Under the pieces are notes generated by a model. That model made no database searches. It saw only the letters and a program-made list of their open reading frames with translations, and had not been told where the DNA came from. Shown one piece after another: positions 781 through 61,855 of a DNA stretch of 64,000 nucleotides (positions are counted from its first letter, which is position 1; each line of letters starts with the position of its first letter). The translations under genes and the position numbers were made by a program. The DNA lies in the NCBI GenBank assembly GCA_026391215.1, contig JAPLDX010000065.1, positions 330 through 64,329 on the forward strand, given 5' to 3'. The stretch comes from Bacteroidia bacterium (GTDB taxonomy: Bacteria > Bacteroidota > Bacteroidia > Bacteroidales > VadinHA17).

Positions 781-929
781 ATATACCCCCCTCCCGCAAC
801 GCGGGATCCCCCCCGAAGGGGGGCTAAATCCAGCCCTCATGCATATACTTATTACATACGGGTTTTAGGCCCCCTTCAGGGGGCAGGCCCACGACTTGCG
901 TGGGCCGGGGGTTCTTAGACCGTTGCGAA
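781..929. repeat. Nested-palindrome intergenic element, copy A
   Basis: ACCCCC(785-790) pairs with GGGGGT(907-912). Encloses hairpins TCCCGC-AAC-GCGGGA, C6-7-GAA(G)-G6, GCCCCC-TTCA-GGGGGC and GGCCCACG-ACTTG-CGTGGGCC. Ends with CCGTTGCG next to the stop codon at 930. Confidence 0.85.
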
Positions 930-3900: not shown

Positions 3901-5720
3901 GATACGTTTCCGATAGCTACATTATTTGATCCGGACTGATTGGAATTTCCAGCCTTAAAGCCTATGAAAACATTATTAATTCCATCCATATTTGCCTTCC
4001 CTGATTCAAAGCCCAGCATGACATTGTAGCTGCCTGTCGAAATATTGGCTCCGACTGACTGGCCTATCAGTACATTCTGTTCTCCATTAGTGGCTTTCTC
4101 TCCTGCCCTGCTGCCTATATATACATTCCCTCCTTGTGACTGGTTTGAACGGCCGGCTAAATAACCTATAAAAGTATTGTCATTTCCGGTATTTGTTAAT
4201 CCAGCCTGATAACCCATGAATGAATTATATTGTCCTGTATTGATTTTACCGCTTCCCTTGCCAAGAAAAACATTAAAACTGTTTGTGTTGCCATATCCTG
4301 CCGAATCACCCAGGAATACATTACTGGAACCAGATGTTCCCAGATAGCCCGATAAGTTCCCAATCGTAACATTATTTGATCCGGTCAGATTCCCCGAACC
4401 TGCTTTGAATCCGAGAAAAACATTGTTGCTCCCGTCAGTGTTATTAAGACCGGTTTCATATCCTACAAATGAATTGTAAAGCCCATCGTTAATATTGGAA
4501 CCACTTTTCTCTCCAATAAAATAGTTTTCGGGAGTCATATCCATGAAGTAAGATGCTTCTCCTTTCCCTGCAGATGTAAAACCACCTATTGCAAATCCTC
4601 CTTTGGGGGATTTAGCTTCAGTATTAACATAAACCCTTGTACTGTCGCGTGTTACACGCAGATACTCTTCATCTATACCTTTGGCCGTCCCATAACCGCC
4701 AATTGCAAATCCTCCCTTTACTCCTTTATCAGAAGGTTCCTTGTCCAGATAGATCCTCACACTGTCGTTGCTCACCATAAACAGATCCTGCGGCTTGCCT
4801 TTTGCTGTACCATAACCTCCGATAGCAAAGCCGCCTTTTACTCCCTTTGTAATATCAGTATCTGCATTGTCAATATATACCCTTACACTGTCGTCACTTA
4901 CGAAAAGGAGATCCTGTGGATCTGACTTGTTTGTACCATATCCCCCTATGGCAAATCCCCCTTTTGCACCTTTACCTGATTGATCAATATAGATTCTTAC
5001 CGTATCAGGTTTTACTATCAGATATGGTTGCGATGGCCCCTTTACCGTACCAAAACCTCCTACTGCAAACCCTCCTTTTGGACCCTTTGACCCATCATCT
5101 ACATATATCCTTACTCCCTCATTATAAACTGCAAATACAATCTGGCCGTCCTTGTTCTTAACCTCAAACAATGATTCATCCATTACTTCTGTTGAACCTG
5201 CCACTTCCAGCTTGCTGAAAGGACCTTCAAGTTTTTCAGCTACCCTGGCAGTATCAGCCACTATTGCATGGTCAGCAACAATCGCATTTTCAGCTACCAT
5301 GGAATAGGGTACTGACCATAATTTCGCATTACCCATATTTTTCCACGATCCCTGGTAATAGAGCTGGACTTTAAGAAATAACGGAGTTGCCGTCCAGTCT
5401 ATATCCGAAAATTCTGCCGCTGCACCCGATAGCCTTGATCCTGTACCTACTACAAGTCCAAAAACACCGGATGCATTTGTTCTGACGGATGAATGAAGCT
5501 CCTCCCATACAATAGCCGGTGTGAGGGTATCGGAGAGGATAGCCATTTTCGCCTGTATTTCAGTATTTGCAACAGGAACTCCATTACTGTTCCGGGCTAC
5601 TGCCTGGTAATTAAATCCCTGCGGGACCTGGCTCAGGGCGGAGGGCGAAGGGCTCAGGGCAAGAAGACACAAGACACAAGACACAAGACACAAGGGGGAG
5701 AGTTTTGGTTTCATGATCAT
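930..5720 (-). CDS. Giant (1596 aa) secreted tail-fibre-like repeat protein with C-terminal S74-type intramolecular chaperone domain
   Basis: Signal peptide. N-domain QVPQGFNYQAVAR..LWSVPYSM is shared with both neighbours. Five ~35-aa repeats VRIYxD..KGxKGGFAIGGYGT, then ~1000 aa of 14-15-aa NxFxGxxAGxxNTxGxxN repeats. C-terminus YSDTRVK..IGLIAQEV..INYNKLVPVLVKAIQ plus a coiled-coil tail fits the SDxRxK / GxIAQE pattern of endosialidase-chaperone (Peptidase_S74) domains. Confidence 0.8.
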   Translation of the reverse strand: MIMKPKLSPLCLVSCVLCLLALSPSPSALSQVPQGFNYQAVARNSNGVPVANTEIQAKMAILSDTLTPAIVWEELHSSVRTNASGVFGLVVGTGSRLSGAAAEFSDIDWTATPLFLKVQLYYQGSWKNMGNAKLWSVPYSMVAENAIVADHAIVADTARVAEKLEGPFSKLEVAGSTEVMDESLFEVKNKDGQIVFAVYNEGVRIYVDDGSKGPKGGFAVGGFGTVKGPSQPYLIVKPDTVRIYIDQSGKGAKGGFAIGGYGTNKSDPQDLLFVSDDSVRVYIDNADTDITKGVKGGFAIGGYGTAKGKPQDLFMVSNDSVRIYLDKEPSDKGVKGGFAIGGYGTAKGIDEEYLRVTRDSTRVYVNTEAKSPKGGFAIGGFTSAGKGEASYFMDMTPENYFIGEKSGSNINDGLYNSFVGYETGLNNTDGSNNVFLGFKAGSGNLTGSNNVTIGNLSGYLGTSGSSNVFLGDSAGYGNTNSFNVFLGKGSGKINTGQYNSFMGYQAGLTNTGNDNTFIGYLAGRSNQSQGGNVYIGSRAGEKATNGEQNVLIGQSVGANISTGSYNVMLGFESGKANMDGINNVFIGFKAGNSNQSGSNNVAIGNVSGYSGVIGSSNVFLGDSAGYDNTDSYNVFLGTGSGKINTGQYNAFLGYQAGWKNTGSDNTFIGYKAGRSHLSEGGNVYIGSMAGELATHGKQNVLIGESVGKYITTGKYNIMMGYESGKSNKSGTRNVFLGYLAGFTNDTASYNVFVGSQSGYSNTYGRFNNFLGFQSGFNNYNGNKNVFLGYKAGYNNGNSWNNVFIGDSAGYANYEGYDNVFMGSQSGTSNTTGDNNVFIGAYAGKKNTVGGANVFLGQSAGVNNEGGQFNLIFGNLAGYYNFSGNNNVFLGNKAGFQNYNGSNNIYLGFEASGGGLAGNSSASNNVMIGNQAGWHNYSSTNNVFLGNGAGLNIYSGSDNVFLGYMAGYGNSDGSNNVAVGHFSGYSGTSGNSNVFLGDSAGYDNTNSYNVFLGKGSGKTNAGQYNSFMGYQAGMKNTTGSSNVFLGYRTGFNNIGGADPAGSYNVFIGRESGYKNSTGAYNTFLGFEAGRASNSSFNSFIGYKAGRNYTSGSYNTYIGYQAGMASEISFGTGANNVALGYNAGWKITSGYNNVIIGSQTGNKLTSGFDNILIGNQAGNNITEGNSNVAIGLLTGAGLTTNNLNTLVGEKAGFSLAAGTHNVFYGSYAGFLTNGPNENTFLGYDAGYSNVAGFGNTYVGWQTGRQSHGSRNVFIGRAAGMNEDGDYKLYIDQNSTSNPLIWGDFTDGSEKLAFNGKVGIYTKDPQYSVEAWGNNAALIAHYSGQSRGGMVALSGTRVAFLTTDPTNDLVFGYSTSIAQADFSTSFVERMRIDNNNGNVGIGINPASYKLDVAGLANLNSGISSGIALRINGLEAIWSNGTYFAYGYGATYNHFGKPVTIGMLPPDANYYLQLPNDPVKKAKGYAWDTYSDTRVKSEQEDLAYGLNEIMKIIPKQYIQHTSEFSGDDLILGDGEKNIGLIAQEVYDVMPEVVSRPEDESHELWGINYNKLVPVLVKAIQDQQRQIEKLEVLVQQLIEEK
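5632..5694 (-). repeat. Heptamer-phased tract inside the signal-peptide coding region, including perfect (AAGACAC)4
   Basis: Plus strand: CTCAGGG CGGAGGG CGAAGGG CTCAGGG CAAGAAG ACACAAG x4. Perfect AAGACAC x4 at 5664-5691. Analogous tracts at 552-607 and 8728-8776 in the paralogues. Confidence 0.9.
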
Positions 5721-5868
5721 ATGGGTATTACGGTTTGACGGTACGATGGTGAGTCATAATAAGGTTGGAATCAAGAATAAAATAGAAAGTTAGTATAAAA
5801 AGGAGATGCAGTCAAATATTTTTGACGAGGGGAAGAGAAAATTCTATTAAAGTATGTTTATGAATGAT

Positions 5869-6015
5869 GTACCCCCTTCCGGCTAAAGCCGGATCCCCCC
5901 TGAAGGGGAGCTAAATCCAGTTCTCAAACAAACTCCTGTAGAAAACAGGTTTTAAGCCCCCTCAAGGGGGCAGGCCTCGCTTCAGCGAGGCCGGGGGTCC
6001 TTTGAGCCGTTGCGC
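5869..6015. repeat. Nested-palindrome intergenic element, copy B
   Basis: Same architecture as 781..929 with stems TCCGGC-TAAA-GCCGGA, CCCCCC-TGAA-GGGGAG, GCCCCC-TCAA-GGGGGC and GGCCTCGC-TTCA-GCGAGGCC; outer ACCCCC/GGGGGT. Confidence 0.85.
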
Positions 6016-8790: not shown

Positions 8791-8882
8791 ATTTATATGA
8801 GTTTAGAATCCTTTTTATCAGAAAAATAATCCGTAAGTTATGCTAAAAATCAACAGAATCAAGTTTTTTTTGCCGAATGTCA

Positions 8883-9146
8883 TGTACTCACCCCCTTCCT
8901 TCGCTCCGCTCAGGCATTCCCCCTCTCTGCTAAAGCAAAGAGGGTGAAGATTACCTTACAAAAACTGAGAAATAAATGAACTTGGTATCAGAATTTTAAG
9001 AATCTAAAATGCAGAATTAAAATATAGAAAAAGCACTTAGATTGATACCCATTTCCTTAGCCTAACTACCAGATAATAAATTATTTATTCAAATTAATCA
9101 CCTCCCTCTTTGCTTTAGCAGAGAGGGGGGCGGGGGGGTGAGTACA
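8883..9146. repeat. MITE-like element: ~50-70-nt terminal inverted repeats flanking an AT-rich core
   Basis: Left arm TGTACTCACCCCC..CCCCCTCTCTGCTAAAGCAAAGAGGGTGAAGATTA (8883-8952). Right arm TAATCACCTCCCTCTTTGCTTTAGCAGAGAGGGGGGCGGGGGGGTGAGTACA (9095-9146) is its reverse complement, apart from a 23-nt insertion in the left arm. Confidence 0.8.
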
Positions 9147-11641: not shown

Positions 11642-13096
11642 ATGCCAGGTATGAAGCTTATCAATCCTTTAATTATTCTCAGGATCCTGAGTACAATTCT
11701 TCTGATTGAAAGCATCTGCTTTTTATTTTGCGTTCCTGTTGCCCTGATATACAGGGAACAATCAAATCCTTTCATCTGGTCATCAGTTATTACCGGACTT
11801 ATTTATGCTCTGTTCCGGATCGTCAGCATGAAAACCGATATGGAAAAGATAACGAACAGGGACTCATACATGGCAGTTACCCTGTCATGGCTGGTTTTCA
11901 CCCTGATGGGCTCCTTACCATATCTTCTAAGCGGGACCATCCCTTCATTCATTAATGCATTTTTTGAATCAACGTCAGGATTCAGTACAACAGGAGCATC
12001 CATATTGACGGATGTGGAGACCCTTCCATATTCAATACTTTTCTGGCGAAGTTTTACGCACTGGATCGGCGGGCTTGGAATAATCGTACTGGTAATTATC
12101 ATCCTTCCCTCACTCAAGATAGCGGGATATCAGCTATTCAGTCTGGAATCTTCACTTAAAGAAAAGATACATCCAAAAACAAAAGCTATCGGATTCAGGG
12201 TAATGTTCATTTACATTGGGCTTACGCTTGCCGAGATCCTTCTATTATGGATGGGTGATATGAATCTATTCGACAGTGCATGCCATTCATTCGGAACCAT
12301 AGCTACAGGAGGCTTCTCAACAAAGAACAATAGTCTGCAATTCTATTCTGATTACAGCCAGTATGTTGTTATGATATTTATGTTCCTGGCGGGGACCAGT
12401 CAGGTTGTCTACTATTACCTGTTAAAATTAAATTTCAGGAAAGCAAGACAGAATGAAGAATTGTGGTTTTATATTTTAGTTGTATTTGTTGCGGGAGTAT
12501 TTGCGACAATAATTCTCATTACAAGTTCAAATCGCTCTTTAGAAGAAGCATTCAGGGAGGGGTATTTTCAGGTTATTTCAATAATATCATGTACCGGATT
12601 TGCTTCCGCCGATTTTCTATTCTGGCCGGTATCAGGCTTATTGTTGATCTTTATCCTGATGTTTGCAGGCGGCATGACAGGATCAACAAGCGGCGGAATC
12701 AAGATGGCAAGGCATCTGATTGTCCTTAAGAACATTAAGCATGTTTTTGTCAGGATGAATCATCCTCAGGCCACCGCATCCATTAAACTGAATGGCAAAG
12801 TTGTGAACGAAAGCATAAACACTACAATAATCTCATTCGTTTTTCTTTATATTTTTCTTTTTATTACTGGTACCATAATCGTTGTAATAACAGGTGTGGA
12901 TCCCATTACCTCAGCGACTTCAGTGGCAACATGTATGGCAGGGATAGGCCCGGGCTTAGGTACTGTCGGACCCATGAATAATTTTGCTCACATGCCTGAT
13001 GTAAGCAAGATTGTGCTGAGTCTTCTCATGATCATAGGAAGGCTTGAGATCATAACGGCATTTGCTTTGTTTTCAAAATCGTTCTGGAGGCTTTAA
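11642..13096 (+). CDS. trkH: TrkH/KtrB-family potassium uptake permease
   Basis: Polytopic membrane protein with GFSTTGAS and GGMTGSTSGGIKMAR selectivity-filter-like motifs. The tracked ORF starts at 11540, but the family-like N-terminus begins MPGMKLINPL (11642 or 11651). Confidence 0.8.
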   Translation: MPGMKLINPLIILRILSTILLIESICFLFCVPVALIYREQSNPFIWSSVITGLIYALFRIVSMKTDMEKITNRDSYMAVTLSWLVFTLMGSLPYLLSGTIPSFINAFFESTSGFSTTGASILTDVETLPYSILFWRSFTHWIGGLGIIVLVIIILPSLKIAGYQLFSLESSLKEKIHPKTKAIGFRVMFIYIGLTLAEILLLWMGDMNLFDSACHSFGTIATGGFSTKNNSLQFYSDYSQYVVMIFMFLAGTSQVVYYYLLKLNFRKARQNEELWFYILVVFVAGVFATIILITSSNRSLEEAFREGYFQVISIISCTGFASADFLFWPVSGLLLIFILMFAGGMTGSTSGGIKMARHLIVLKNIKHVFVRMNHPQATASIKLNGKVVNESINTTIISFVFLYIFLFITGTIIVVITGVDPITSATSVATCMAGIGPGLGTVGPMNNFAHMPDVSKIVLSLLMIIGRLEIITAFALFSKSFWRL

Positions 13097-13134
13097 AACG
13101 GTACACGGTACACGGCGCACGGCGTACGGCACAC
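13097..13134 (+). repeat. 7-nt degenerate tandem array (ACGGYRY x5) abutting the trkH stop
   Basis: TAA|A ACGGTAC ACGGTAC ACGGCGC ACGGCGT ACGGCAC AC. Confidence 0.9.
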
Positions 13135-13150: not shown

Positions 13151-13867
13151 CTACACGGTAAATAATTTTCTTGCTTCTTCAAGATTCTCAGGGGTTCCGA
13201 CATTTACCCAGTAACCGCTGTCGTCTCTTAAAGTGAATATTTCATGGCTTGAAGCAAGCTGAAGATAGAGAGCTGTCATTGTGTAAACACCATTGCTCAT
13301 ATAGTCGAATATTTCAGGATTTATGATATGTCTTCCTGAAAAAGCTATCTCGGACAGATTCTCTGTTTCCTCACAGGCAATGATCCTTTCCCCCGTTGAT
13401 TTATTGCACCATCCTTTCAATAAACCCTCCTTATCAACAAGCAGATACCTTGTCCCCTCGCGGTTCCTGACAGCAAGGGTTGCCAGTCCCTTCATTTTAA
13501 GATGGTACCGGTACAATGCAGTAAGATCCAGATTAGTCAGTGTATCAGCATTACATAAAAGAAAAGGGGCGCTGTCAAAAAATCTCCTGGCTTTATATAA
13601 TCCTCCTCCGGTTTCGAGAAGCATATCCCGTTCATCCGAAACAGTGATCTTAAATCCATCCTTTCTAAGTCTTTCCGCCTCCTCCTCGACCATATCTGCA
13701 AGATGGTGGACATTTATTATGATGTCGTCAAATCCTGATGCTGTGCAACTCTCTACAGCCATACGGAGTAAGCTCTTTCCGTTTATATCAAGGAGAGCTT
13801 TGGGAATTGTTTCTGCGATTTTACCGAGCCGTGTGCCTTTTCCGGCTGCAAGGATCATTGCTTTCAT
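13151..13867 (-). CDS. murU: MurNAc-alpha-1-phosphate uridylyltransferase-like nucleotidyltransferase
   Basis: MKAMILAAGKGTRLG..IPKALL sugar-1-P nucleotidyltransferase signature. Sits immediately downstream of an AmgK-like kinase, the known amgK-murU arrangement. Confidence 0.7.
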   Translation of the reverse strand: MKAMILAAGKGTRLGKIAETIPKALLDINGKSLLRMAVESCTASGFDDIIINVHHLADMVEEEAERLRKDGFKITVSDERDMLLETGGGLYKARRFFDSAPFLLCNADTLTNLDLTALYRYHLKMKGLATLAVRNREGTRYLLVDKEGLLKGWCNKSTGERIIACEETENLSEIAFSGRHIINPEIFDYMSNGVYTMTALYLQLASSHEIFTLRDDSGYWVNVGTPENLEEARKLFTV

Positions 13868-13877
13868 TGGCAGAAAA

Positions 13878-14912
13878 TTATTGAGGCTGTGAAGAGAGCT
13901 TTTTGAACAGCTGGGAATCCGGGATTGCCCTTACAGTACTATATAGCTCAGGCAGGGCAACATGGTTTTCAGCCTGGCTTATTATCTGTGTAAGCAGATG
14001 GACACCCGGCACTATGCTTTCCGTAAATGTAGGCTTCTGTTCATACAGTCCCCTGAATCCAAAAGCTCCGAGCGCCTGCATAACCCGTATCATGCTGAAG
14101 CCGGAATAGTAACCTTTGAATTTATTCTTATCCTCATTAGAAACTGAACAGAATTTATCAATAAAATAATCGAGAAGCTCATTCCTGTCAGACTGCAGCA
14201 TTGGGATCTTGGCATCATATAAAAGAGATGCAACATCATACTGGGGCGCTCCCTTCCTGCCGCCCTGATAATCAATGAACCATGGCTCGTTCCCGACTAC
14301 CATTACATTTGCTGTCTGAAAGTCCCTGTAAAGGAAATAGTCCTGGCCAGTTTCAAGCAAATAATCGGCCAGCGAGACAAAATCGTGTTCCAGGTTCCGT
14401 TCATTAAAGGGAACCGCCAGAAGCTTGAGAAGCATGTATTTGAAATAGTTAAGATCCCACATCATTGACTGGCGGTCAAAGCTGCGGTGCGGGTAACAAA
14501 GATCAAGGTTAAGACCTTTAATGCCTTCGATCTGAAAAAGTATCAGCCTATCAAGTATTTTCCGGTAAAGATCCTTTGTCTCCGGATTGAAATCTGTAAT
14601 ATCGGATCTGCTATGGAGCCAGGTATAAAGATTTATATCGCCAAGATCCTTCAGATAATAGACGAACTTATCAGGAAGATATCCGTAAATCTCCGGTACA
14701 GGAAGACCTTTCGCAATGAAATGGTTGGTGAAACCCACAAAAGCTTCATTTTCTTCAAGGTTTGGGTTATAGGCGCCGATAATGCTCTTACCGGATTCAG
14801 TTATCCTGAAATATCTCCTGTCTGAACCTGACCTGGGAAGAGGTGTTATCTTCAGATCAGAACCACCAAACAATTCTTTGTAACCTTCTGATATTATGTC
14901 AATCTCAGTCAT
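13878..14912 (-). CDS. amgK: Anomeric MurNAc/GlcNAc kinase-like phosphotransferase (APH family)
   Basis: Aminoglycoside-phosphotransferase-like fold (..LYRDFQTANVMV..WFIDYQGGRKGAPQYDVASLL) paired with murU. Confidence 0.65.
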   Translation of the reverse strand: MTEIDIISEGYKELFGGSDLKITPLPRSGSDRRYFRITESGKSIIGAYNPNLEENEAFVGFTNHFIAKGLPVPEIYGYLPDKFVYYLKDLGDINLYTWLHSRSDITDFNPETKDLYRKILDRLILFQIEGIKGLNLDLCYPHRSFDRQSMMWDLNYFKYMLLKLLAVPFNERNLEHDFVSLADYLLETGQDYFLYRDFQTANVMVVGNEPWFIDYQGGRKGAPQYDVASLLYDAKIPMLQSDRNELLDYFIDKFCSVSNEDKNKFKGYYSGFSMIRVMQALGAFGFRGLYEQKPTFTESIVPGVHLLTQIISQAENHVALPELYSTVRAIPDSQLFKKLSSQPQ

Positions 14913-14982
14913 GTCTCTTTCTTTTAACCACGGTGTTTCACAGAGTTAAAACGGAGTTACACAGTTTTTTCTCCCCTTCTTC

Positions 14983-15026
14983 CCTTTGTACCCTTGAACC
15001 GTTGAACCATTGCACCTTTGTACCAT
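14983..15026 (-). repeat. 8-nt degenerate tandem array (CAANGG core) abutting the stop of 15026..16135
   Basis: Plus strand CCTTTGTA CCCTTGAA CCGTTGAA CCATTGCA CCTTTGTA CCATTA. In gene sense this reads TAATGG TACAAAGG TGCAATGG TTCAACGG TTCAAGGG TACAAAGG. Confidence 0.9.
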
Positions 15027-16135
15027 TAGAGTTTTATCAGGATCTTCTTTTTATATAAAATTAAAGCAATTAACCATATCAAAAGTACCTGTATTAATGC
15101 AAACATAAGGCTTCCTATCATATTTCCAGCAACAGGGACACAAACATGCGAATAAAACCAGTTATAAAGAGTAACCTTTTCATCTCCGACCGGGATCTTA
15201 ATGAACAACATCAGTCTTGTCCATATACCTGCAAGGAAATAAGAAAACAGGGCATTCATGCCAAATACTGTGAAGAAGGTTCCCCACTTCTGGAATCTGA
15301 GCACATCTGCAAGAAAATATATTGCAGCAAGAACTGCCATTGCCCATCCTGCTGTATAGAGCACATATGAACTCGTCCATATCGGCTTGTTGATCGGGAA
15401 AAGCATACTCCATAAAAGACCAAGTCCTATTGAAGAAGCCCCGAGCAGGAGGAGCTTCAGGACTGTTTTGCCTGAAGGTGTCTCTTTTCCCAGCATTTCT
15501 CCTATGAAATAACCGATAATGACAGTGCATATTGCGGGCAGAGTACTAAGCAGACCCTCGGGATCAAAAGGTCTCCCGAATTCCTTGTACATGTGGTTTG
15601 TTCCCAGTATTGCAGCATCCATTTTCTGCACAAAATTTCCTTCGAGACTAAAGGGATCATATCCTCCGAGAAATGCCAGCAATGCCCAGTAGAGCAACAG
15701 GAGAGCTGCTGCAACTATCCAAAGATACTGACGCCTGACAGTCAGACATATTATAGCGCCCAGACCATAAGCAATGGCGATTCGCTGCAGAACGCCCATT
15801 ATCCTGAGTGTTGAATAGTCCCTGTTGAAATAAGGAAATATTGCAAGGAAAAGGCCAACGGCAAATATGGTCACCATGCGTCTGAATATTCTGAACAGGG
15901 ATCCGGCATTTATTTCATGTCCGTATTTTTTAAAGGAGTACCACATTGAGACGCCCACGATGAAAAGGAAGAACGGGAATACAAGGTCGGTTGGTGTGCA
16001 TCCGTTCCACGCTGCATGACGTAATGGCGGATATACATAAGTCCAGCTTCCGGGAGTGTTCACAATGATCATAAAGGCGATCGTCATACCCCTGAAAATA
16101 TCGAGTGAAACAAGCCGGTTACTGCTTTTTGCCAT
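15026..16135 (-). CDS. DUF5009 / HGSNAT-like polytopic membrane acyltransferase
   Basis: RLVSLDIFRGMTIAFMIIVNTPGSW..HAAWNGCTPTDLVFPFFLFIVGVS resembles heparan-alpha-glucosaminide N-acetyltransferase-type proteins; multiple TM segments. Confidence 0.6.
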   Translation of the reverse strand: MAKSSNRLVSLDIFRGMTIAFMIIVNTPGSWTYVYPPLRHAAWNGCTPTDLVFPFFLFIVGVSMWYSFKKYGHEINAGSLFRIFRRMVTIFAVGLFLAIFPYFNRDYSTLRIMGVLQRIAIAYGLGAIICLTVRRQYLWIVAAALLLLYWALLAFLGGYDPFSLEGNFVQKMDAAILGTNHMYKEFGRPFDPEGLLSTLPAICTVIIGYFIGEMLGKETPSGKTVLKLLLLGASSIGLGLLWSMLFPINKPIWTSSYVLYTAGWAMAVLAAIYFLADVLRFQKWGTFFTVFGMNALFSYFLAGIWTRLMLFIKIPVGDEKVTLYNWFYSHVCVPVAGNMIGSLMFALIQVLLIWLIALILYKKKILIKL

Positions 16136-16183
16136 GACACATTATTATTAAAACGTATAAAAATAACATTATAGGTCTTAAGA

Positions 16184-17341
16184 TCAGTCGCGGAACATTT
16201 TTATTTTTTCGGTTATACCTATTCCCGGTCTTTCATTAAGCGTAATCCTGCCATCGATGACGGTAACACCTTCATAGCAATCATTGCTTATCAGGAGATT
16301 GCCGTCCAGGTCAGCCCAGTGAGCCAGGGGTGAGAGCTGCGCTGCAGCCGATATTGCACAGGAAGTCTCTGTCATACACCCTATCATCACCTTCATTCCC
16401 ATCTCTCTTGCCAAAGTCGCCATCTTGTATGCAGCATTCATTCCTCCGCATTTCATAAGCTTGATGTTTATGGCGGAATAGACACCTTTCATCGGGAGAA
16501 GATCATCTATTGTCTGTAAAGCCTCATCTGCAACAACCGGGATGGGCGAATTTTCTGTAAGCCATGCAATGTCATCGATCATTGTTTTTGGCATCGGCTG
16601 TTCAAGAAAAGCCACATTGTTTTCCTTTAGCCAGTTTGCCATTTCCAGGGCATAATTCCTGTCTTTCCATCCCTGGTTTACATCCACGCATATAGGCTTA
16701 TCGGAAACGCTCCTGATAGTTTCTATCATCTCCCTGTCATTGCCAAGCCCAAGCTTTACTTTAAGGATTTTATATGGTTCTGCTTCAGCAACTTTCTGCC
16801 GGACTACTTCCGGAGTGTCAATGCCGATCGTAAAGCTTGTAAAAGGAGTTTTCCCGGGATCAAGGCCCCAGAGCCTGAACCAGGGCTTTCCTATCAGCTT
16901 TCCGACAAGGTCGTGCAGTGCAATATCAACTGAGGCTTTCGCAGCATAGTTACCGGGTTGGATCCCGTCAAGATACGCAACTATGTCCTCAATGAGGAAA
17001 GGGTCCTTAAACTGCTCCAGATTAACCTGTGAAAGAAATTTTGTTGCGGTATCATAGCTTTCACCAAGATAAGGAGGCATTGAGGCTTCACCGAAGCCTT
17101 TTTTCCCGTCGTACTCAATTTCCGTCAGCACGACAGGTGTGGTTGTCCTTGAACTGGTTGCAAGCGTAAACACATGTTTAAGCTTAAGCTCATACGGTAT
17201 AAACCTGAGCTTCATAGTTGTACTCTTTCTTTTCATCGGAGTTATTGTTTTTACCGGTTCAGCAATCGCAGCAATTGACTTCCCTGAAATCATTGCCCCT
17301 GCAAGCAACGAACAGTATTTAAGAAATTCCCTTTTCTTCAT
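16184..17341 (-). CDS. Dipeptide (L-Ala-D/L-Glu type) epimerase, enolase superfamily, with N-terminal Tat/Sec-like extension
   Basis: KVKLG, DVNQGW, FLEQP and ADEA metal-ligand/catalytic blocks of MLE-subgroup epimerases. N-terminal MKKREFLKYCSLLAGAMISGKSIAAIA precedes the canonical MKLRF start. Confidence 0.75.
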   Translation of the reverse strand: MKKREFLKYCSLLAGAMISGKSIAAIAEPVKTITPMKRKSTTMKLRFIPYELKLKHVFTLATSSRTTTPVVLTEIEYDGKKGFGEASMPPYLGESYDTATKFLSQVNLEQFKDPFLIEDIVAYLDGIQPGNYAAKASVDIALHDLVGKLIGKPWFRLWGLDPGKTPFTSFTIGIDTPEVVRQKVAEAEPYKILKVKLGLGNDREMIETIRSVSDKPICVDVNQGWKDRNYALEMANWLKENNVAFLEQPMPKTMIDDIAWLTENSPIPVVADEALQTIDDLLPMKGVYSAINIKLMKCGGMNAAYKMATLAREMGMKVMIGCMTETSCAISAAAQLSPLAHWADLDGNLLISNDCYEGVTVIDGRITLNERPGIGITEKIKMFRD

Positions 17342-17342
17342 T

Positions 17343-40375: not shown

Positions 40376-40376
40376 G

Positions 40377-40460
40377 TGCCCAGAACAAGACTCGAACTTG
40401 CACACCTTTGCAGGCACCAGCCCCTCAAGCTGGCGTGTCTACCAATTTCACCATCTGGGC
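40377..40460 (-). tRNA. tRNA-Leu (anticodon GAG), class II
   Basis: Reverse complement GCCCAGA-TG-GTGAAATTGGTAGACAC-G-CCAGC-TTGAGGG-GCTGG-long variable arm-GCAAGTTCGAGTCTTGT-TCTGGGC-A folds as a cloverleaf; CCA not encoded. Confidence 0.9.
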
Positions 40461-40464
40461 GACA

Positions 40465-40577
40465 AACGGCTCAACGGCTCAATGGCGCAATGGCACAAAG
40501 GTGTTAAGCCTGATAATATCTGATCACCAAAGAACTTTTCCGTTGCGCCGTTGTACCGTTGTACCTTTGCGCCGTTA
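40465..40577. repeat. Two inverted 8-nt tandem arrays in the tRNA-Leu/tRNA-Leu spacer
   Basis: 40465-40503: AACGGCTC AACGGCTC AATGGCGC AATGGCAC AAAGGTG. 40540-40577: CCGTTGCG CCGTTGTA CCGTTGTA CCTTTGCG CCGTTA. Confidence 0.9.
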
Positions 40578-40581
40578 GTTG

Positions 40582-40665
40582 TGCCCAGAACAGGACTCGA
40601 ACCTGCACATCATCACTGACACTAGTCCCTGAAACTAGCGCGTCTACCAATTTCGCCATCTGGGC
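40582..40665 (-). tRNA. tRNA-Leu (anticodon CAG), class II
   Basis: Reverse complement GCCCAGA-TG-GCGAAATTGGTAGACGC-G-CTAGT-TTCAGGG-ACTAG-variable arm-GCAGGTTCGAGTCCTGT-TCTGGGC-A. Confidence 0.9.
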
Positions 40666-43381: not shown

Positions 43382-43489
43382 CCCCTTGTCGCTACGCGAC
43401 ACCTCCCTGAAGGGGGATTAACTTCAGACATAACTTAATCTCCTGAATAACTGTGAATTAGCTCCCCTTTAGGGGGGATGGGGGGTTTA
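43379..43489. repeat. Nested-palindrome element, copy F
   Basis: Outer TAACCCC / GGGGTTA arms coincide with the two convergent TAA stop codons. Inner GTCGC-TAC-GCGAC, CTCCC-TGAA-GGGGG and CTCCCC-TTTA-GGGGGG. Confidence 0.8.
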
Positions 43490-46836: not shown

Positions 46837-46875
46837 TGCCGCAAGCCGTGTACCGTGTACCTCGCGCCGTGCCCT
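46837..46875 (-). repeat. 7-nt degenerate tandem array abutting the stop of the PKD lipoprotein gene
   Basis: In gene sense: TAAAGG GCACGG CGCGAGG TACACGG TACACGG CTTGCGG CAC. Confidence 0.8.
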
Positions 46876-47622
46876 TTATTTCACTTTAATGCTCTTTTCA
46901 TATAGAGCTTTCCAGTCTTCGGTATCATTGCTGATCATTGACTTGTCTGAACTCTTCCTTTCAAGCTTTTTGATAACCATCGTCCTGTCGTGTTTCCCAT
47001 CACCCTTGGTAGTGTGTTCCACATAATCGACCCAGGCTGTGAACCTGTTTATCTTGTGGGGCATTATCTCAGATGTCCTGATAAACCCTACATCCTCGGC
47101 TGCTAAATCATAATTATCGTGGTTTTGCTCCCACACATCTACATAATATACATATGGTCCAAGGTTTGAAAATACAACCAGCCCATCTTCATCAGTGAAT
47201 CCTTCCGATTCCATGTTATCCTCTCCTTCCCAATCAACCAGGGTCGGATATAATCTTACACTCGCTCCCTCCACTACATATTCATCGTACCATTCAACAA
47301 CTTCTATCTCCAGAAGTGTCGGGATCTGTACATCTATTGTTATTGAAGCCTCGTCTGAGATGCCGGATCTCGAGAAAGCCGTAAGCACTGCCTCAAAAGA
47401 GCCTGATGCGGTATAATAATGTACAGGATTTGCTTCTGATGAAACAAAGCCATCGCCAAAATCCCATTCAAATTTTGTTGCATTGTGTGAATCGTTTGTG
47501 AACAAAACATCCTGTCCTACTTCCGGGTCTAAAGTATCGGTAAAGAAATGTGCCTCTGGTGTTGATTCACAGGAAAAGACTATAAACGGAAGAACCAGAA
47601 ACAGATAGATTATCCTTTTCAT
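46876..47622 (-). CDS. PKD-domain lipoprotein
   Basis: MKRIIYLFLVLPFIVFSC lipoprotein signal (start moved to 47622). PKD block VLFTNDSHNATKFEWDFGDG..NPVHYYTASGSFEAVLTA. Confidence 0.7.
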   Translation of the reverse strand: MKRIIYLFLVLPFIVFSCESTPEAHFFTDTLDPEVGQDVLFTNDSHNATKFEWDFGDGFVSSEANPVHYYTASGSFEAVLTAFSRSGISDEASITIDVQIPTLLEIEVVEWYDEYVVEGASVRLYPTLVDWEGEDNMESEGFTDEDGLVVFSNLGPYVYYVDVWEQNHDNYDLAAEDVGFIRTSEIMPHKINRFTAWVDYVEHTTKGDGKHDRTMVIKKLERKSSDKSMISNDTEDWKALYEKSIKVK

Positions 47623-47796
47623 CTTAAAATCAACTGACTTTAAAAGGCTGGAAGGAACCTGCATGTTTTTGCTTTCATGCTTATCAGCCTTGTTTATGGA
47701 ATTAGCTGGTTTCATTGCTTTAAGTATTGGTATCTGTAATGATAAAATCAAAATGTGTGCCATGTTTTAAATTATACCTCAGTAAAAAAATATAAT

Positions 47797-50693: not shown

Positions 50694-51038
50694 ATGCCAA
50701 GATCAGTAAATCATGTAGCAGCAAGAGCCAGGAAAAAGAAGGTTCTTAAACAGACAAAAGGTAACTTCCTTTCAAGAAGAAATGTATTCACAGTAGCAAA
50801 GAACACCCTCGACAAAGGGCTGGGCTATCAATACCGTGACAGGAGGAAAAAGAAGGGAGAATTCAGATCGTTATGGATCCAGAGGATCAATGCAGGTGTT
50901 CGTCAGTATGATATGAGCTATTCGGAGTTTATTGGAAAACTTGAGAATAAAGGAATCACACTCAACAGGAAAACACTTGCCGACCTGGTAATGAACAACC
51001 CGGAAGCCTTTAAGGCTGTAGTGGAAAAGGTGAAATAA
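50694..51038 (+). CDS. rplT: 50S ribosomal protein L20
   Basis: [44 protein letters not shown]. Confidence 0.95.
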
Positions 51039-51049
51039 AAAGATTATAC

Positions 51050-51189: not shown

Positions 51190-51200
51190 GTGTGGTGAGG

Positions 51201-55149: not shown

Positions 55150-55294
55150 CCCCCGTCCATGCTGAAGCATGGCCTGCCCCCTAAAGGGGGCTCAAAACCA
55201 TTTACCTATTTTGATTAGTGGTGGGTTTTAGACCCCCTTCAGGGGGTGCTGCGAAGCAGCGGGGGTTCTTACCTTCAGGGGGGGTGGGGGGTCA
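55147..55294. repeat. Nested-palindrome element, copy G
   Basis: Outer TGACCCCC / GGGGGTCA. Inner CCATGC-TGAA-GCATGG, GCCCCC-TAAA-GGGGGC, ACCCCC-TTCA-GGGGGT and GCTGC-GAA-GCAGC. The left arm contains the TGA stop of 53461..55149. Confidence 0.8.
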
Positions 55295-55533
55295 TCAGAC
55301 AGGGAAGTAAGTATCCTTAGTGCCTCCTCTCTTGAATTTCCGCAAAATTCTGGTTCCGGCTTGAAGTTAACACATACTTTTGGTCTTATACGATCTCCGT
55401 ACAGTGCACATTTATTATCATCAAGCAGATGAATGCATTTTAGCCCTGCCGGCTTGCCCTCAGGCATTCCGGGAATCGGTGAAGATATAGATATCGCGAT
55501 ACAGCAAGCACCGCAGTCTTCTCTGCAATCCAT
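55228..55533 (-). CDS. YkgJ-family Cys-cluster (zinc/iron-chelating) protein
   Basis: MDCREDCGACCI..KCIHL..NKCALY..VCVNF CxxCxxCC-type pattern. The last ~22 codons lie inside repeat element 55147..55294. Confidence 0.6.
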   Translation of the reverse strand: MDCREDCGACCIAISISSPIPGMPEGKPAGLKCIHLLDDNKCALYGDRIRPKVCVNFKPEPEFCGNSREEALRILTSLSDDPPPPLKVRTPAASQHPLKGV

Positions 55534-55538
55534 TGAGG

Positions 55539-55625
55539 AAAGATAAAAGATAAAAGTAAAAAGATAAAAGTAAATAGGGAAATATTCAGATTTTAACCGT
55601 TGAACCTTGGTACCGTTGAGCCTTA
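55539..55625 (-). repeat. A-rich 7-nt array (55539-55575) plus 8-nt CAANGG array (55595-55625)
   Basis: AAAGATA AAAGATA AAAGTAA AAAGATA AAAGTAA. Then AACCGTTG AACCTTGG TACCGTTG AGCCTTA, which is CAACGG/CAAGG units in the sense of the FtsX permease gene whose stop is at 55636. Confidence 0.8.
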
Positions 55626-55635
55626 TTACTAAAAT

Positions 55636-58017
55636 TCATTCATTCCTGATAGTATCTACCGGATTGAGTTTGAATATCTTGTAGGTCTCCAGGCTAATCG
55701 TTATAAACGTGATAGCAAGAACAATCATTCCGGGAAACACAAAAATCCATATCGAAAGGTTGGTACGATAAGGGAATTGCATCAACCACTTTGTTCCAGC
55801 AAAATAAATTACCGGAGATACTATAACGAATGCCACGCCTATCCAAATCATAAACTCTTTCAGAACATCAAGGTAAATTCTTTTTGAGGATGCCCCGTTA
55901 ACCTTCATAATACTGTAAATATGTTGTTTACTTTCCAGGGTATATGCAGTCATCCCATACAGACCCAGACAGGCAATAAGTACAGCGAATATTGTAAAGA
56001 TCAGCACAAGATTGCCGGTTGTCTGTTCCTTTTCATATTGCCTGTTAAAATCATCGTCAAGGAAGAAATAATCTTCAGCTGAATCAGGGAATAATTCTTT
56101 GTATTTTTTTCTGGCTTCTTTTAGAACATCCGAAGCCATGCTTTCACTGAATACTAATGTTATATACCTATAGTCTTCACCCATGAGGAAGAATCCCATA
56201 GGTCCGATTTCCTGATTTTTCCCCCTGAAGTGGTAATCTTTAAAAACCCCCCTGATCCGTAAATCCCTGTCAAAGAATGTTTTTGTCAAAGCTTCTTCAG
56301 GAGAATTCCATCCGAATTCTTTAATCGCTGCCTCATTAATAATCATTCCGGTGTTTTCCTGCTGGCTTAGTTCCGGATCTAATGGCTCTCCTGCGATCAT
56401 CTCAAGCCCATAAAGCCGTATAAAGTCATAATCAGCCTGCATACAATTAATTATATGCGAGTTGGTGGCTTTTTCACCAGAAGGCCAGTATTGCCAGCCG
56501 TACATCCACCGACCGGGGACACTGGATGATACTGTAGTTTCAATAACTGAAGGATTCTCTTCAAATGTGGACTTCACTCTTTCATAATTGTCCGGAGTAA
56601 CTTTTCCCTCAGGCAGCCGGAATACAAGCTTCTGCTCCTTTATAAACCCTAACGGAGAATTCTTCATATAATTTAATTGCCTGGATATCAGAAATGTAGC
56701 TATGACCAGAAAAATGCTTATCATAAACTGGCATATTACCAGTACTCTTCTGAAAGAATGGCTGCCTTTACCCGGGGTTTTTGAACCTTTCATTACAGCA
56801 ACTGGATTTACGGATGAGAGCATGAAGGCAGGATATGAACCCGCTACAAGACCGGTAACAATAATGATTGATATGAGGAACAAAGCAAATTTGGGATCCA
56901 GGTATGGAACTTTAAGTTGTACCTGGACAATATTGTTTATGAATATTAGTCCTGTCTCAACAAGTGCCATAGCAATAAAATGAGCAATGAAGACAGTGAA
57001 AAGTGATTCCCCGAGAAACTGAATTCCAAGCTGTCTTTCCCCGGCACCAAATGTCTTTCTTACACCAAGTTCCTTTGTACGGTTTATGAACCTTGCTGTT
57101 GAAAGGTTCATATAATTGAAACATGTTGTTATAAGGACCAGAATTCCGATTGCGGAGATCAGATAGAGGAAGCTCTTATTTCCGTGCGTTCCAAAATCAT
57201 CAATGACTTCTGAGTTCAGATGTATATTTCTAACTGGATCAAGGAAACAGCTAATCGTCTCACCTGATTCTTTAAGTATGTCTCCGGCTATCTGTGCAGG
57301 AATGTTCCTGATCTTATTATCAAAGAGCAGAGGATCAACATTGGGCTTTAACTTGATATAGGTATAGATGCTCATTCCATATGTCATCATATTATAGGGC
57401 ATTTCTTCTGCCGACACCCTGGTTGAGTACGATATCATTAAATCTGGCCGGAAATGCGAATTTGAAGGAATATCTTCCACTACTCCTACTACTTCAAAAA
57501 GGGCTGTGTCTATCTTCACTATCTTTCTGAGGGCTGTACTATCACCAAAATAACGTCGTCTTAAAGTCTCGGTTAAAACAACAGTATTGGGCCTGGATAT
57601 TTCTGTTGAGGGATTCCCTTCAATCACATTGAAGGTAAAAACATTAAATATTCCCGGTGAAACCATGCATATTTTATCTTCCTTGTAAGCTATATCTTCA
57701 AATCTGACTGTCGATGCGCGCCATGTATTAATCCTTCCTACAGCTTCGGATTCATCCATCTCTTCAAGGGCTACTCCAATGAAATGTGTACACCGGGCAC
57801 GCCTGGCTCCGTTTGAATGTTGATTGGATTCCTCTTCAACCCTGAAAATACGATCATTATCATTATGAAACCTGTCATAGCTTGTTTCGAATCTGACATA
57901 TATGAAAATAATCATACATATTGCTAAACCAATAGATAATCCAAGTATGTTAATGATTGATATGCTTCCGGCTTTTCTTGAAATTCTGAAAGCTATTTTT
58001 AGATAATGCTTTATCAT
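55636..58017 (-). CDS. FtsX/MacB-type ABC transporter permease (793 aa, two FtsX modules)
   Basis: N-terminal TM, large periplasmic MacB-like domains and two 4-TM FtsX bundles (..FGAGERQLGIQFLGESL.., ..MKVNGASSKRIYLDVLKEF..). Confidence 0.75.
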   Translation of the reverse strand: MIKHYLKIAFRISRKAGSISIINILGLSIGLAICMIIFIYVRFETSYDRFHNDNDRIFRVEEESNQHSNGARRARCTHFIGVALEEMDESEAVGRINTWRASTVRFEDIAYKEDKICMVSPGIFNVFTFNVIEGNPSTEISRPNTVVLTETLRRRYFGDSTALRKIVKIDTALFEVVGVVEDIPSNSHFRPDLMISYSTRVSAEEMPYNMMTYGMSIYTYIKLKPNVDPLLFDNKIRNIPAQIAGDILKESGETISCFLDPVRNIHLNSEVIDDFGTHGNKSFLYLISAIGILVLITTCFNYMNLSTARFINRTKELGVRKTFGAGERQLGIQFLGESLFTVFIAHFIAMALVETGLIFINNIVQVQLKVPYLDPKFALFLISIIIVTGLVAGSYPAFMLSSVNPVAVMKGSKTPGKGSHSFRRVLVICQFMISIFLVIATFLISRQLNYMKNSPLGFIKEQKLVFRLPEGKVTPDNYERVKSTFEENPSVIETTVSSSVPGRWMYGWQYWPSGEKATNSHIINCMQADYDFIRLYGLEMIAGEPLDPELSQQENTGMIINEAAIKEFGWNSPEEALTKTFFDRDLRIRGVFKDYHFRGKNQEIGPMGFFLMGEDYRYITLVFSESMASDVLKEARKKYKELFPDSAEDYFFLDDDFNRQYEKEQTTGNLVLIFTIFAVLIACLGLYGMTAYTLESKQHIYSIMKVNGASSKRIYLDVLKEFMIWIGVAFVIVSPVIYFAGTKWLMQFPYRTNLSIWIFVFPGMIVLAITFITISLETYKIFKLNPVDTIRNE

Positions 58018-60990: not shown

Positions 60991-61668
60991 ATGCGAATAG
61001 ATATTATTACAGTCTGCCCTGAATTGATAGAAAGCCCGCTGAATTATTCAATTGTTAAAAGAGCAAAGGATAAAGGTCTCGTTGAGATCAATGTAGTCAA
61101 CCTGCACGATTTTGCCAGCGATAAATATAAAAGCGTCGATGATTATGCGTTTGGCGGAGGTGCAGGCATGGTGATGATGATAGAGCCGGTATGGAAAGCT
61201 ATTGAAAAGCTGAAGAGTGAAAGAGAATATGATGAAATAATATACACCTCACCCGATGGTGAAAAATTCACCCAGAAAATAGCTAATAACCTTTCGCTGC
61301 TGAACAACATAATTATACTTTCCGGCCACTATAAAGGCATTGATCAAAGGATACGAGATAACCTGGTCACCAGGGAAATATCTGTCGGCGACTATGTACT
61401 CTCGGGAGGCGAATTACCCGCTGCTATGATCACCGATGCTGTCGTCAGGCTAATCCCGGGAGCCATTTCCGATGAACAGTCCGCCCTCTCCGACTCCTTC
61501 CAGGACGATCTCCTCGCACCTCCTGTTTATACCAGACCGGCAGATTTTAAAGGCTGGAAAGTGCCGGATGTTCTACTTTCCGGACATGCCGCTGAAATTG
61601 AAAAATGGAGGCATGAACAGGCAGAGGAAAGAACCAGTAAATTAAGACCGGATCTGCTCCGGGAATAA
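60991..61668 (+). CDS. trmD: tRNA (guanine37-N1)-methyltransferase
   Basis: [47 protein letters not shown]. Start moved to 60991 (a TACTTTTG box sits at 60967-60974). Confidence 0.9.
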
Positions 61669-61855
61669 GGTCGTGCAGGTCATGCAGGTCGTGCAGGTCG
61701 TGCAGGTCATGCAGGTCATGCAGGTCATGCAGGTCATGCAGGTTATGCAGGTTATGCAGGCTGTGGATGACTTGCAGGACTGGCAAGACCGGCAAGACCG
61801 GCAAGACTTGCAGGACTGACAAGACTGGCAAGACCGGCAAGACTTGCAGGACTTA
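61669..61855 (+). repeat. About 21 units of a 9-nt tandem repeat starting at the trmD stop codon
   Basis: TAA|GGTCGTGCA GGTCATGCA GGTCGTGCA GGTCGTGCA GGTCATGCA x4 GGTTATGCA x2 GGCTGTGGA TGACTTGCA GGACTGGCA AGACCGGCA x2 AGACTTGCA GGACTGACA AGACTGGCA AGACCGGCA AGACTTGCA GGACTTA. Confidence 0.95.

Follow-up and report, generated by a model that had tools for sequence, protein, structure and literature searches.

Arrays with a CAANGG Core and Their Setting

The window analyzed here is the whole 64,000-nt stretch of contig JAPLDX010000065.1 from a Bacteroidia bacterium of the VadinHA17 lineage, and the elements in question are short tandem arrays of 8-nt units with a CAANGG core, which an earlier note, made from the sequence alone, had described as strand-consistent arrays beginning at or close to stop codons at five or more loci. 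The main array (14983..15028, minus strand) comprises five full 8-nt units (YRCAANGG) and a partial TGG behind the stop codon TAA (15028-15026) of a gene encoding a DUF5009 protein (15026..16135). The stop codon itself fills the CAA slot of a unit (TAATGG), and the full units read, in order from 15022 to 14983, TACAAAGG TGCAATGG TTCAACGG TTCAAGGG TACAAAGG; the whole lies within a 113-nt spacer ahead of an APH-family gene (start 14912). A second array (40540..40580, minus strand) begins 4 nt past the 3' end of tRNA-Leu(cag) (40581..40665, minus strand) and reads TAACGG CGCAAAGG TACAACGG TACAACGG CGCAACGG (40577-40540). Its inverted partner (40461..40503, minus strand) consists of five CCNTTG units on the tRNA strand, equivalent to CAANGG on the plus strand (40462-40503: ACAAACGG CTCAACGG CTCAATGG CGCAATGG CACAAAGG), and stops 1-4 nt short of the 5' end of tRNA-Leu(gag) (40376..40460, minus strand). 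A further array of 3-4 units (55595..55625, minus strand; TAAGGCT CAACGGTA CCAAGGTT CAACGGTT) follows, after a 10-nt gap, the stop (55638-55636) of a MacB/FtsX permease gene (55636..58017). Finally, a pair of units (5999..6014, minus strand; CGCAACGG CTCAAAGG) lies 1 nt past the stop of a 924-aa 'fibre' gene, with a pair of GC hairpins resembling repetitive extragenic palindromes (REP) coming next, and a single CAACGG (920..925, minus strand) lies 4 nt past the stop of a paralogous 1596-aa 'fibre' gene; the flanks at 920 and 5999 are paralogous copies of one flank and are not independent cases.

CAANGG hexamers number 133 over both strands of the window (61 + 72), and the histogram of their spacings peaks at 8, 16, and 24 only. 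Three phased units with at most one mismatch gave 11 matches at 4 loci, compared with 0.01 expected from dinucleotide shuffles, which confirms that the runs are real and far above chance. Every array sequence quoted in the earlier note is present at the place given for it, and the association with stops is non-random (see below), but the count of five or more loci shrinks on inspection: of the arrays with at least three units, only two abut protein stops (at 15026 and behind FtsX) and one abuts a tRNA 3' end. The array at 40465-40503, previously read as lying downstream of a GH3 gene and a tRNA, was misassigned; it is separated from the GH3 stop by 89 nt that include an antisense tRNA gene, and it reads CCNTTG on the strand of tRNA-Leu(gag).

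Replacement of the Repeat Unit at Orthologous Positions

The DUF5009 protein (369 aa, 15026..16135) is 100% identical to one of a 'Bacteroidia bacterium' MAG, and two other assemblies have the identical gene along with the identical array. A metagenome scan for this protein provided 80 orthologous loci; these and the loci from the other scans are identified below by L numbers. Among relatives with 68-82% protein identity, the DUF5009 stop is nearly always followed by an array of period 7-8, with a unit that differs from one relative to another. The unit is CAAYGGTR in L123 (4 units) and L124 (7 units), and L129 carries ~16 CAANGG units with C-initial variable positions, while the same position is occupied by TGTAATGG in L140, AAGACAC in L139, AAAGACA or AAAGTAA in L126, L127, L128, L133, L141, and L149, GGCAGAA in L130 and L147, GACCGCAA in L142, and GGCNCAG in L136. 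The stop of L203 also reads TAATGG in the CAANGG register. The core is therefore kept at this stop in only some relatives (L123, L124, L129, and L203), which is not the sequence conservation seen in binding sites of the CsrA or TRAP type. A few of the orthologous loci have no array at this stop, and below 60% identity, relatives lack a spacer or, in several cases, have plain terminator hairpins. Just 2-3 decaying CAANGG units are left in a relative of 92% identity, and in a relative of 85% identity (a Rikenellaceae metagenome-assembled genome, MAG) the DUF5009 and APH-family genes overlap and no array is present.

The part of the spacer between the main array and the APH-family start (14913-14975, minus strand) is a conserved block with an imperfect ~11-nt repeat (AACTCCGT / AACTCTGT / AACACCGTGGTTAAAAGA), and it is common to relatives with differing arrays (the equivalents in L123 and L140). 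Being shared despite the different arrays, the block may serve the downstream operon as a leader or regulatory element.

A similar picture emerges at the stop of the TrkH gene, where a 7-nt array (13097..13134, plus strand; AACGGTA CACGGTA CACGGCG CACGGCG TACGGCA CAC) starts directly after the stop codon (13094-13096) and is the sole feature of a 54-nt convergent spacer. Its CACGG unit equals the 8-nt unit less one A. At least six relatives carry arrays of other units at this stop, the sense units across relatives being CACGGYR, TTCAGCG, CGGGTGC, GCGACAG, TGTGAGG, TGGGTAC, and CGGAATG. Relatives of 76% and 73% identity, the two usable cases among few and fragmentary protein hits, lack the CAANGG array past the orthologous FtsX stop. 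Variation in length and sequence at a shared intergenic position was thus seen at the DUF5009, TrkH, and FtsX stops as well as in the tRNA-Leu spacer. The arrays can also rewrite C-termini. In L139 (5795-5975), a 141-nt array of AAGACCAG (5819-5959, 17.6 units) occupies the entire gap between the APH gene and the following gene and ends 1 nt short of the ATG of the latter. It also provides the C-terminal codons of the APH gene, whose stop codon comes from TAGACCAG variant units; the corresponding genes are 10 nt apart in the window.

Position and Strand Polarity

The census of relatives applied Tandem Repeats Finder (TRF) to the window and 27 non-redundant close loci (~290 kb), with arrays of at least 3 copies retained; for the window, the 3' flank of every long open reading frame (ORF) was additionally printed and combined with the TRF output to find arrays starting at stops. 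Placement was examined for 46 non-coding arrays flanked on both sides by called genes, each being assigned a random position in its own spacer and a random strand in 5000 trials. Nearly half of these arrays (22/46) start within 10 nt past a stop with their purine-rich strand in sense, while random placement gave 6.2±2.0 with a maximum of 14. Among arrays abutting exactly one stop, the purine-rich strand is in sense in 21 and antisense in 3 (p=3e-4), a polarity to which one orthologous position, the DUF5009 stop, contributes much. Counting all stop abutments by arrays of period 7-9, 26 are sense and 5 antisense. The placement known from the repeats of Rehm et al. (0-50 bp past the stop, on the coding strand, and nearer to the 5' than to the 3' neighbor) is consequently found in this clade as well.

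A cross-phylum sample of at least 120 loci, retrieved by four phased CAANGG units, displays the same tendency: among the matches listed, 22 begin no more than 15 nt past the stop of an ORF on the same strand, compared with 4-5 that abut a stop in antisense and 3-4 that abut a start. A Flavobacterium, for instance, has CAAAGG arrays (L044, L067, L077). The occurrence of CAANGG across phyla was considered as a sign that this motif is special and was rejected, as it may merely reflect the huge number of 8-nt arrays. Biases toward stops and toward one strand, the absence of which the earlier note had named as the outcome that would speak against it, are both present in the clade and beyond. Strand consistency exists as a preference and not as the invariable rule that had been proposed, the array at 40462-40503 being a counterexample.

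The polarity follows the local gene. A 69-nt convergent spacer in L204 (9388-9456) contains two arrays whose polarities are opposite, and the G-rich strand of each is the sense strand of the gene that it abuts. This flip within one spacer indicates that polarity is not set by the replichore. An effect of the replication strand was rejected for the same reason, given that polarity flips within 40-70 nt (window 40461-40580; L204 9388-9456). The sense-strand purine fraction is mostly 0.6-0.95, and G equals or exceeds C in most arrays. The flanks of tRNA genes, with a pyrimidine-rich leader and a purine-rich trailer, are organized like those of ORFs, which makes the rule independent of translation. 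Polarity of this kind implies a filter or a role at the level of the transcript. Across the relatives, position, period, and polarity are retained even as the unit drifts and gives way to others.

A Hairpin between Two tRNA-Leu Genes

The spacer between tRNA-Leu(cag) and tRNA-Leu(gag) (40461..40580, minus strand) contains two inverted arrays that pair in an imperfect ~37-bp stem, with the array at 40540 forming the 5' arm and that at 40461 the 3' arm. The mismatches in the stem are regularly spaced, and its minimum free energy is -44.1 kcal/mol (z -4.2), with none of 200 shuffles as good. The corresponding spacer in L204 (1838-2008) is built from TTAAGG/CCTTAA units, with (TTAAGGCN)x7 at the position of the 3' arm, and folds at -40.6 (z -3.6), and that of L127 (6674-6762) has 7-nt AAAAGGC/CCTTTnn units and a weaker fold (-19.7, z -2.0). 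Merely 8 nt separate the two tRNA-Leu genes in L139 and L148. The hairpin arms stay complementary through replacement of the unit, as three different units attest, and this upkeep could result from selection for a processing stem or from quasipalindrome template switching.

The Wider Class of 7-9-nt Repeats

In the 64-kb window, TRF detects 12 arrays of period 7-9. Those of period 7-8 number 9, against ~0.3 per 64 kb in Markov-simulated copies of the window, which served as the model for array density. The spectrum of periods is narrow: among 65 arrays from the window and the 27 close loci, 2 have period 5, 4 have period 6, 36 have period 7, 18 have period 8, 4 have period 9, and 1 has period 10. 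Array density is 23-25 per 100 kb in the window and close relatives, compared with 8-11 per 100 kb in distant relatives, where the hits are mostly AT-rich and of low score; this uncultured Bacteroidia lineage is in effect saturated with arrays, at about one per 4-5 kb. By a crude ORF map, most arrays of period 7-9 are non-coding (51/62), and the coding cases fall in signal-peptide or C-terminal codons. Single genomes hold many different units (six each in L139 and L129), and the head-to-tail copies of a 5-11-nt unit, without spacers and at many loci per genome, are those of long-unit simple sequence repeats (SSRs), the class that goes by the name STRR in cyanobacteria and 'long SSRs' elsewhere among bacteria. 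CAANGG is accordingly one local flavor of a fast-changing family of 7-9-nt tandem repeats and not a special element. In a different Bacteroidota lineage (L198-L201, distant, 44% identity), long perfect 8-nt arrays were observed (GCTAGAGG x16 and x10, GGGTTGAA x14), so that a high array load arose in more than one clade.

Besides the TrkH array, the window holds further arrays starting at stops, and these sister arrays (7-nt, 13097-13134 and 46846-46873; 9-nt, 61666-61853) were missed in the earlier list. That of the PKD-domain gene (46846..46875, minus strand; 7-nt, sense GGGCACGG CGCGAGG TACACGG TACACGG) sits between the stop of the gene (46876..47763) and a separate bidirectional terminator hairpin. 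From the trmD stop codon extend two 9-nt arrays (61666..61853, plus strand; GGTCRTGCA x10 and GACYGRCAA x9), which have sufficient self-complementarity to fold (z -3.2 and -4.8), in contrast to the arrays of 7- and 8-nt units. A look-up with the downstream aminotransferase gene gave nothing, and the one contig retrieved with trmD (Logan) ends inside the array.

The repeat class also occurs on the start side of genes. A pyrimidine-rich 7-nt array (55539..55574, minus strand; sense TTTTATC/TTTTTAC x5) ends 5 nt ahead of the ATG of a small Cys-rich ORF (55228..55533; MDCREDCGACC...), and (TTTTRTC)x8 lies just before the orthologous ATG in L206 (1134-1196), a relative of 76% identity, the distance to the ATG being 1-5 nt. 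This array is kept in unit and position, in contrast to the CAANGG array upstream of it. The TTTTATC/TTTTGTC array (5-8 units) resembles reiterated Bacteroidetes -7 boxes (TAnnTTTG).

Tandem 7-nt repeats also lie within signal-peptide codons of three large secreted-protein paralogues (GTGTCTT x4.4 at 100% identity, GCCCTSN x4, and TTATCTT x4.6), namely at 5630..5694 (minus strand; sense GTGTCTT x4.4 and GCCCTSN x4) in the 1596-aa gene and at equivalent places in two paralogues of it (550-605 and 8733-8764). They translate to MKPKLSPLCLVSCVLCLLALSPSPSALSQ-VPQGFNYQA, and a unit that is not a multiple of three in the 5' coding region of a surface protein is classical architecture for phase variation by frameshift. 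The 1596-aa gene further contains a 450-nt tandem duplication (3601-4424; 1.8 copies, 78% identity), which indicates that domains are repeated within the 'fibre' protein.

Families of REP-like, GC-rich hairpins populate 3' flanks and convergent spacers and often adjoin arrays (e.g., CCCCCGGCCnnGC...GCnnGGCCTGCCCCCTnnAGGGGGC, CCCCCTCTCTGCTAAAGCAAAGAGGGGG); they were located at 840-915, 5850-5998, 8880-8945, 9100-9135, 43385-43480, 50705-51200, and 55150-55230.

The neighborhood of the main array (13151-18524) encodes an NlpC/P60-like protein, an MR_MLE protein (dipeptide epimerase), the DUF5009 acyltransferase, the APH-family kinase, and an NTP-transferase. The last two form a pair that we take to resemble AmgK/MurU, and on the strength of this resemblance the cluster looks like one for peptidoglycan recycling. 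Such gene context places the arrays inside or beside housekeeping operons.

Short-read contigs often stop inside arrays (e.g., L012, L037, L056, L061, L107, and L205 at 2150-2207). Assemblies of such MAGs are systematically broken by the arrays, and annotation of MAGs has to reckon both with these breaks and with stop and terminal codons supplied by repeats.

Tests against Known Types of Element

Several known types of element were compared with the arrays. Single 7- and 8-nt arrays are no more stably folded than shuffled sequences (z -0.6 to +0.3), and an intrinsic terminator was rejected on this ground and because a terminator scan was empty at 13097 and 14983. A search of the window with Rfam 15 at the gathering threshold matched only the two tRNAs. 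A G-quadruplex (G4) was likewise rejected for the window arrays, for which the ViennaRNA gquad model gives none in silico. A Rho utilization (rut) site is C-rich, G-poor, and unstructured over about 60-80 nt. The sense transcript is the purine-rich strand and the arrays measure 30-45 nt, so that they lack this character; the antisense strand fits better, yet it is also short. The arrangement expected of phase variation occurs only in the signal-peptide 7-nt arrays of the fibre genes, the CAANGG arrays lying after stops and tRNA ends.

Constraint on the core was approached in two ways. In 31 Bacteroidota CAANGG arrays, the minimum numbers of substitutions at the successive positions of the unit (N1 N2 C A A N G G) are 18, 40, 15, 1, 4, 28, 1, and 9. 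An unbiased per-array test for position-specific constraint, applied to 20 arrays of any unit, was negative (p=0.73), and only the array at 14983 reached nominal significance (p=0.023). Other candidates were dropped for lack of fit: mimicry of the T-loop (GGTTCAA), an antisense Bacteroidetes -7 box (TAnnTTTG), pairing with the anti-Shine-Dalgarno sequence, back-up stops in every frame, and an origin of the YR variable dinucleotide by CpG deamination.

Proposed Origin and Alternative Explanations

With somewhat better than even confidence, the CAANGG runs are explained as slippage-driven long-unit SSRs in unconstrained gene-end DNA that are filtered at the level of the transcript. Replication slippage or unequal exchange would give birth to arrays and remodel them. 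Arrays are seen to extend through gene-adjacent DNA up to a boundary, which is presumably held by selection; growth would be halted by the stop codon or by the next gene's promoter or leader, and spread of this kind could account for the many arrays that start at the stop or include it (e.g., TAANGG in CAANGG arrays and TAGACCAG among AAGACCAG units). The arrays would then be transcribed as 3'-untranslated or intercistronic RNA, as suggested by those that fill an entire spacer inside an operon, and an inverted pair such as that between the tRNA-Leu genes would form a long hairpin in the precursor RNA. In the weakest step, arrays giving sense tracts that are pyrimidine- or C-rich, contain YC, and load Rho would be purged, and purine-rich sense arrays would survive after stops. 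Avoidance of Rho loading is our best guess at the filter that may lie behind the polarity. Drift and replacement of the unit at a persisting position, period, and polarity, as observed among the relatives, complete the sequence of events. The earlier note had argued for a role at the RNA level rather than for neutral microsatellites; polarity implies a filter or role acting on the transcript, and a slippage-type origin is the most economical.

A number of observations weigh against this explanation. The polarity in the clade falls to just 9:3 (p=0.15) once the DUF5009 position is left out. Three assemblies of the same organism, from one study, are identical over 161 nt at the 14983 array and thus display no difference in copy number. 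The substitution counts given above suggest constraint on an AA.G core, although the arrays were detected via that core. Recurrence of CAANGG/CACGG at 5-7 loci per 64 kb, and of 'AAGAC' units across relatives, is not predicted by local independent births. Some sense arrays have more C than G (AAGACAC, AAGACCGC), and the sharp preference for a period of 7-8 nt has no demonstrated cause.

Alternatively, the arrays would be iterated RNA sites for an abundant protein that binds single-stranded RNA (S1, a cold-shock or RNA-recognition-motif protein, or a ring protein with a 7-8-nt step), which would protect the 3' end, block Rho, or couple cistrons, with CAA.GG as the core recognized here. Strand polarity and abutment to gene ends, the presence of one core at 5-7 loci in 64 kb, and the clustering of substitutions at three unit positions (in the 31 arrays) and within the 14983 array (p=0.023) are all consistent with such sites, as is the persistence of the CAANGG flavor at the DUF5009 stop in relatives of 73-92% identity. 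Arrays trailing a tRNA 3' end point to the transcript rather than to translation, and similar proposals have been made for TAACTGA repeats (PMC4679880). Against this stand the unrelated units at orthologous positions and the many units per genome (six each in L139 and L129), the loss of the array in some close relatives with no sign of replacement, the occurrence of the same units in opposite orientation within signal-peptide coding regions, and the lack of an identified candidate protein. A factor specific for CAANGG that binds (CAACGGUA)n RNA, as the earlier note envisaged, fits poorly with a unit that is replaced at the same stop from one relative to the next, and we regard iterated protein sites as unlikely.

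A broader possibility is that the polar arrays constitute a functional gene-boundary system, in which the purine-rich strand would always point away from the gene, outgoing RNA would be purine-rich, protected, and Rho-resistant, and incoming, pyrimidine-rich RNA (read-through or antisense) would be terminated. We consider it doubtful. Such a system would be widespread in Bacteroidia, with parallels in Acidobacteriota, Cyanobacteria, Verrucomicrobiota, and Planctomycetota; period and polarity, and not the sequence, would be under selection, which would explain the fast turnover of units at fixed positions; and the inverted pairs would double as processing stems of tRNA precursors.

Improbable, in our estimation, is the idea that the arrays are direction-dependent insulators, with incoming RNA that is pyrimidine-rich and loads Rho while the outgoing purine-rich transcript is spared. 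Each unit of the incoming RNA would offer one YC dimer (CCGUUGUA, GUGUCUU) in an unstructured context with a weak RNA:DNA hybrid, and convergent or antisense transcription would be halted before it reached the gene. The tie between polarity and the abutted gene, including the flip in the middle of the convergent spacer of L204 (9388-9456), agrees with this arrangement, as do the sense purine fraction and the TrkH/NTP-transferase convergent pair, which has an array and no intrinsic terminator between its genes. At 30-45 nt, however, the window arrays are short for a rut site, and the CAANGG and CACGG arrays have almost no G/C skew (-0.11 to 0.33). Many arrays lie in co-directional operons, where antisense entry is no obvious problem, and sense pyrimidine-rich arrays upstream of some genes and tRNAs would terminate their own transcript.

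Contingency loci, in which copy number would switch or tune the expression of a neighbor (phase variation), are brought to mind by unit lengths that are not multiples of three, by the perfect 7-nt repeats in the signal-peptide codons of three large secreted-protein genes, and by the short-read contigs that end inside arrays. This is nevertheless very improbable for the arrays at gene ends. They follow housekeeping stops (TrkH, trmD, and the peptidoglycan-recycling cluster) and a tRNA, where their length cannot shift a reading frame or promoter spacing; no copy-number difference separates the three assemblies; and Rehm et al. obtained a negative result of the same kind for their own repeats (PMC4692102).

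Action via G4 structures in coding-strand DNA or RNA, which has been proposed for the heptamers of Xanthomonas and Nostoc, is less probable still. Every unit offers one GG or GGG tract, and the 4-5 units of the window arrays satisfy the minimum of four tracts. Quadruplexes are predicted for GGG/GGGG flavors from Acidobacteriota and Cyanobacteria (-5.2 and -26.4 kcal/mol; ViennaRNA), and G4 formation in vitro was demonstrated by Rehm et al. (PMC4692102). For the window arrays themselves, with GG tracts and 6-nt loops, ViennaRNA predicts none, and many sister arrays have no GG at all (AAGACAC, AAAGTAA, AAAGACA).

Least credible of all, despite the REP-like GC hairpins that often lie beside arrays and the recurrence of one unit at several loci, are parts or remnants of mobile elements (REP-like or miniature inverted-repeat transposable elements) and assembly artefacts, given that terminal inverted repeats, target-site duplications, and shared flanks beyond the unit are lacking, that the variable positions are locus-specific (T[A/G/T] at the DUF5009 stop, C[G/T/A] at the tRNAs) and indicate local descent, and that arrays are present in independent assemblies and in dozens of MAGs.

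Position, period, and strand that are kept while the unit is replaced, together with the placement at tRNA genes and the lasting complementarity of inverted pairs, point to selection or a strongly directional mutational process acting on a physical property of the RNA or DNA and not on a motif. The series of orthologous arrays described above provides concrete material with which this can be tested.

Comparison with Known Repeat Systems

The GGA repeats of CsrB/RsmZ and the (G/U)AG repeats bound by TRAP are conserved in sequence among relatives and reside in dedicated small RNAs or leaders. CAANGG arrays are like these sites in having a short core, variable spacers, and one orientation on the transcript, and unlike them in that the unit changes from relative to relative and has no known binding protein.

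A 2007 survey of SSRs by Mrazek et al. reportedly does not describe abutment to stops, polarity, or an 8-nt CAANGG unit. As far as that survey is represented in later work, its long SSRs have in common with the window arrays 5-11-nt units, a non-coding bias, big differences between lineages, and a link to slippage. It is cited there for the over-representation of heptamers and for the idea of polymerase slippage (via PMC4692102).

A literature search found no paper on 8-nt CAANGG arrays or on such arrays in Bacteroidia. The earlier statement that no element of this kind had been described was too broad, as heptamer arrays are on record from Xanthomonas and Nostoc (PMC4692102), from cyanobacteria, and from Bacteroidetes (PMC4679880). 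Reports of long-unit repeats at gene ends in fact date back to 1990 for cyanobacteria and to 2015 for Xanthomonas, with no function assigned. The short tandemly repeated repetitive (STRR) heptamers of heterocystous cyanobacteria occupy intercistronic spacers, including that of hupS-hupL, and can form hairpins; roles in transcript stability or translational coupling have been proposed for them and are unproven (PMC2670836). STRR and window arrays are both tandem and intergenic, but the former belong to another phylum with other units, and the window arrays have period 8 as often as 7.

MacGregor (2015) described intergenic, ORF-oriented arrays of the heptamer TAACTGA in Beggiatoaceae, Cyanobacteria, and five Bacteroidetes, together with 'other heptamer direct repeats' in Bacteroidetes and close relatives without an array at the same spot (PMC4679880). 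The TAACTGA sets lie mostly just upstream of starts in forward orientation, whereas CAANGG arrays come after stops; the TTTTATC array of the window (55539-55574, 5 nt before an ATG) matches this start-proximal type.

The closest parallel in placement is provided by Rehm et al. (2015), who reported head-to-tail repeats of GGGAATC in Xanthomonas and GGGGA(C/T)T in Nostoc at hundreds of non-coding sites, with ~4 units each (PMC4692102). These repeats lie mainly 0-50 bp past stops on the coding strand, some of them overlapping the stop, or adjacent to starts on the non-coding strand, and two Xanthomonas species share intergenic positions at which the length and sequence of the repeats differ extensively; stem-loops can arise from inverted pairs, and the neighboring genes have no functional theme (PMC4692102). 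The CAANGG arrays follow the same placement rule and the same behavior of differing in length and sequence at the same position. They are unlike the Rehm repeats in their mostly 8-nt unit, in having GG instead of GGG tracts, and in the absence of a predicted G4, and, in this Bacteroidia lineage, many unrelated units coexist in one genome. To this class of repeats, the present analysis adds that the placement extends to tRNA genes and that inverted pairs keep their complementarity through replacement of the unit.

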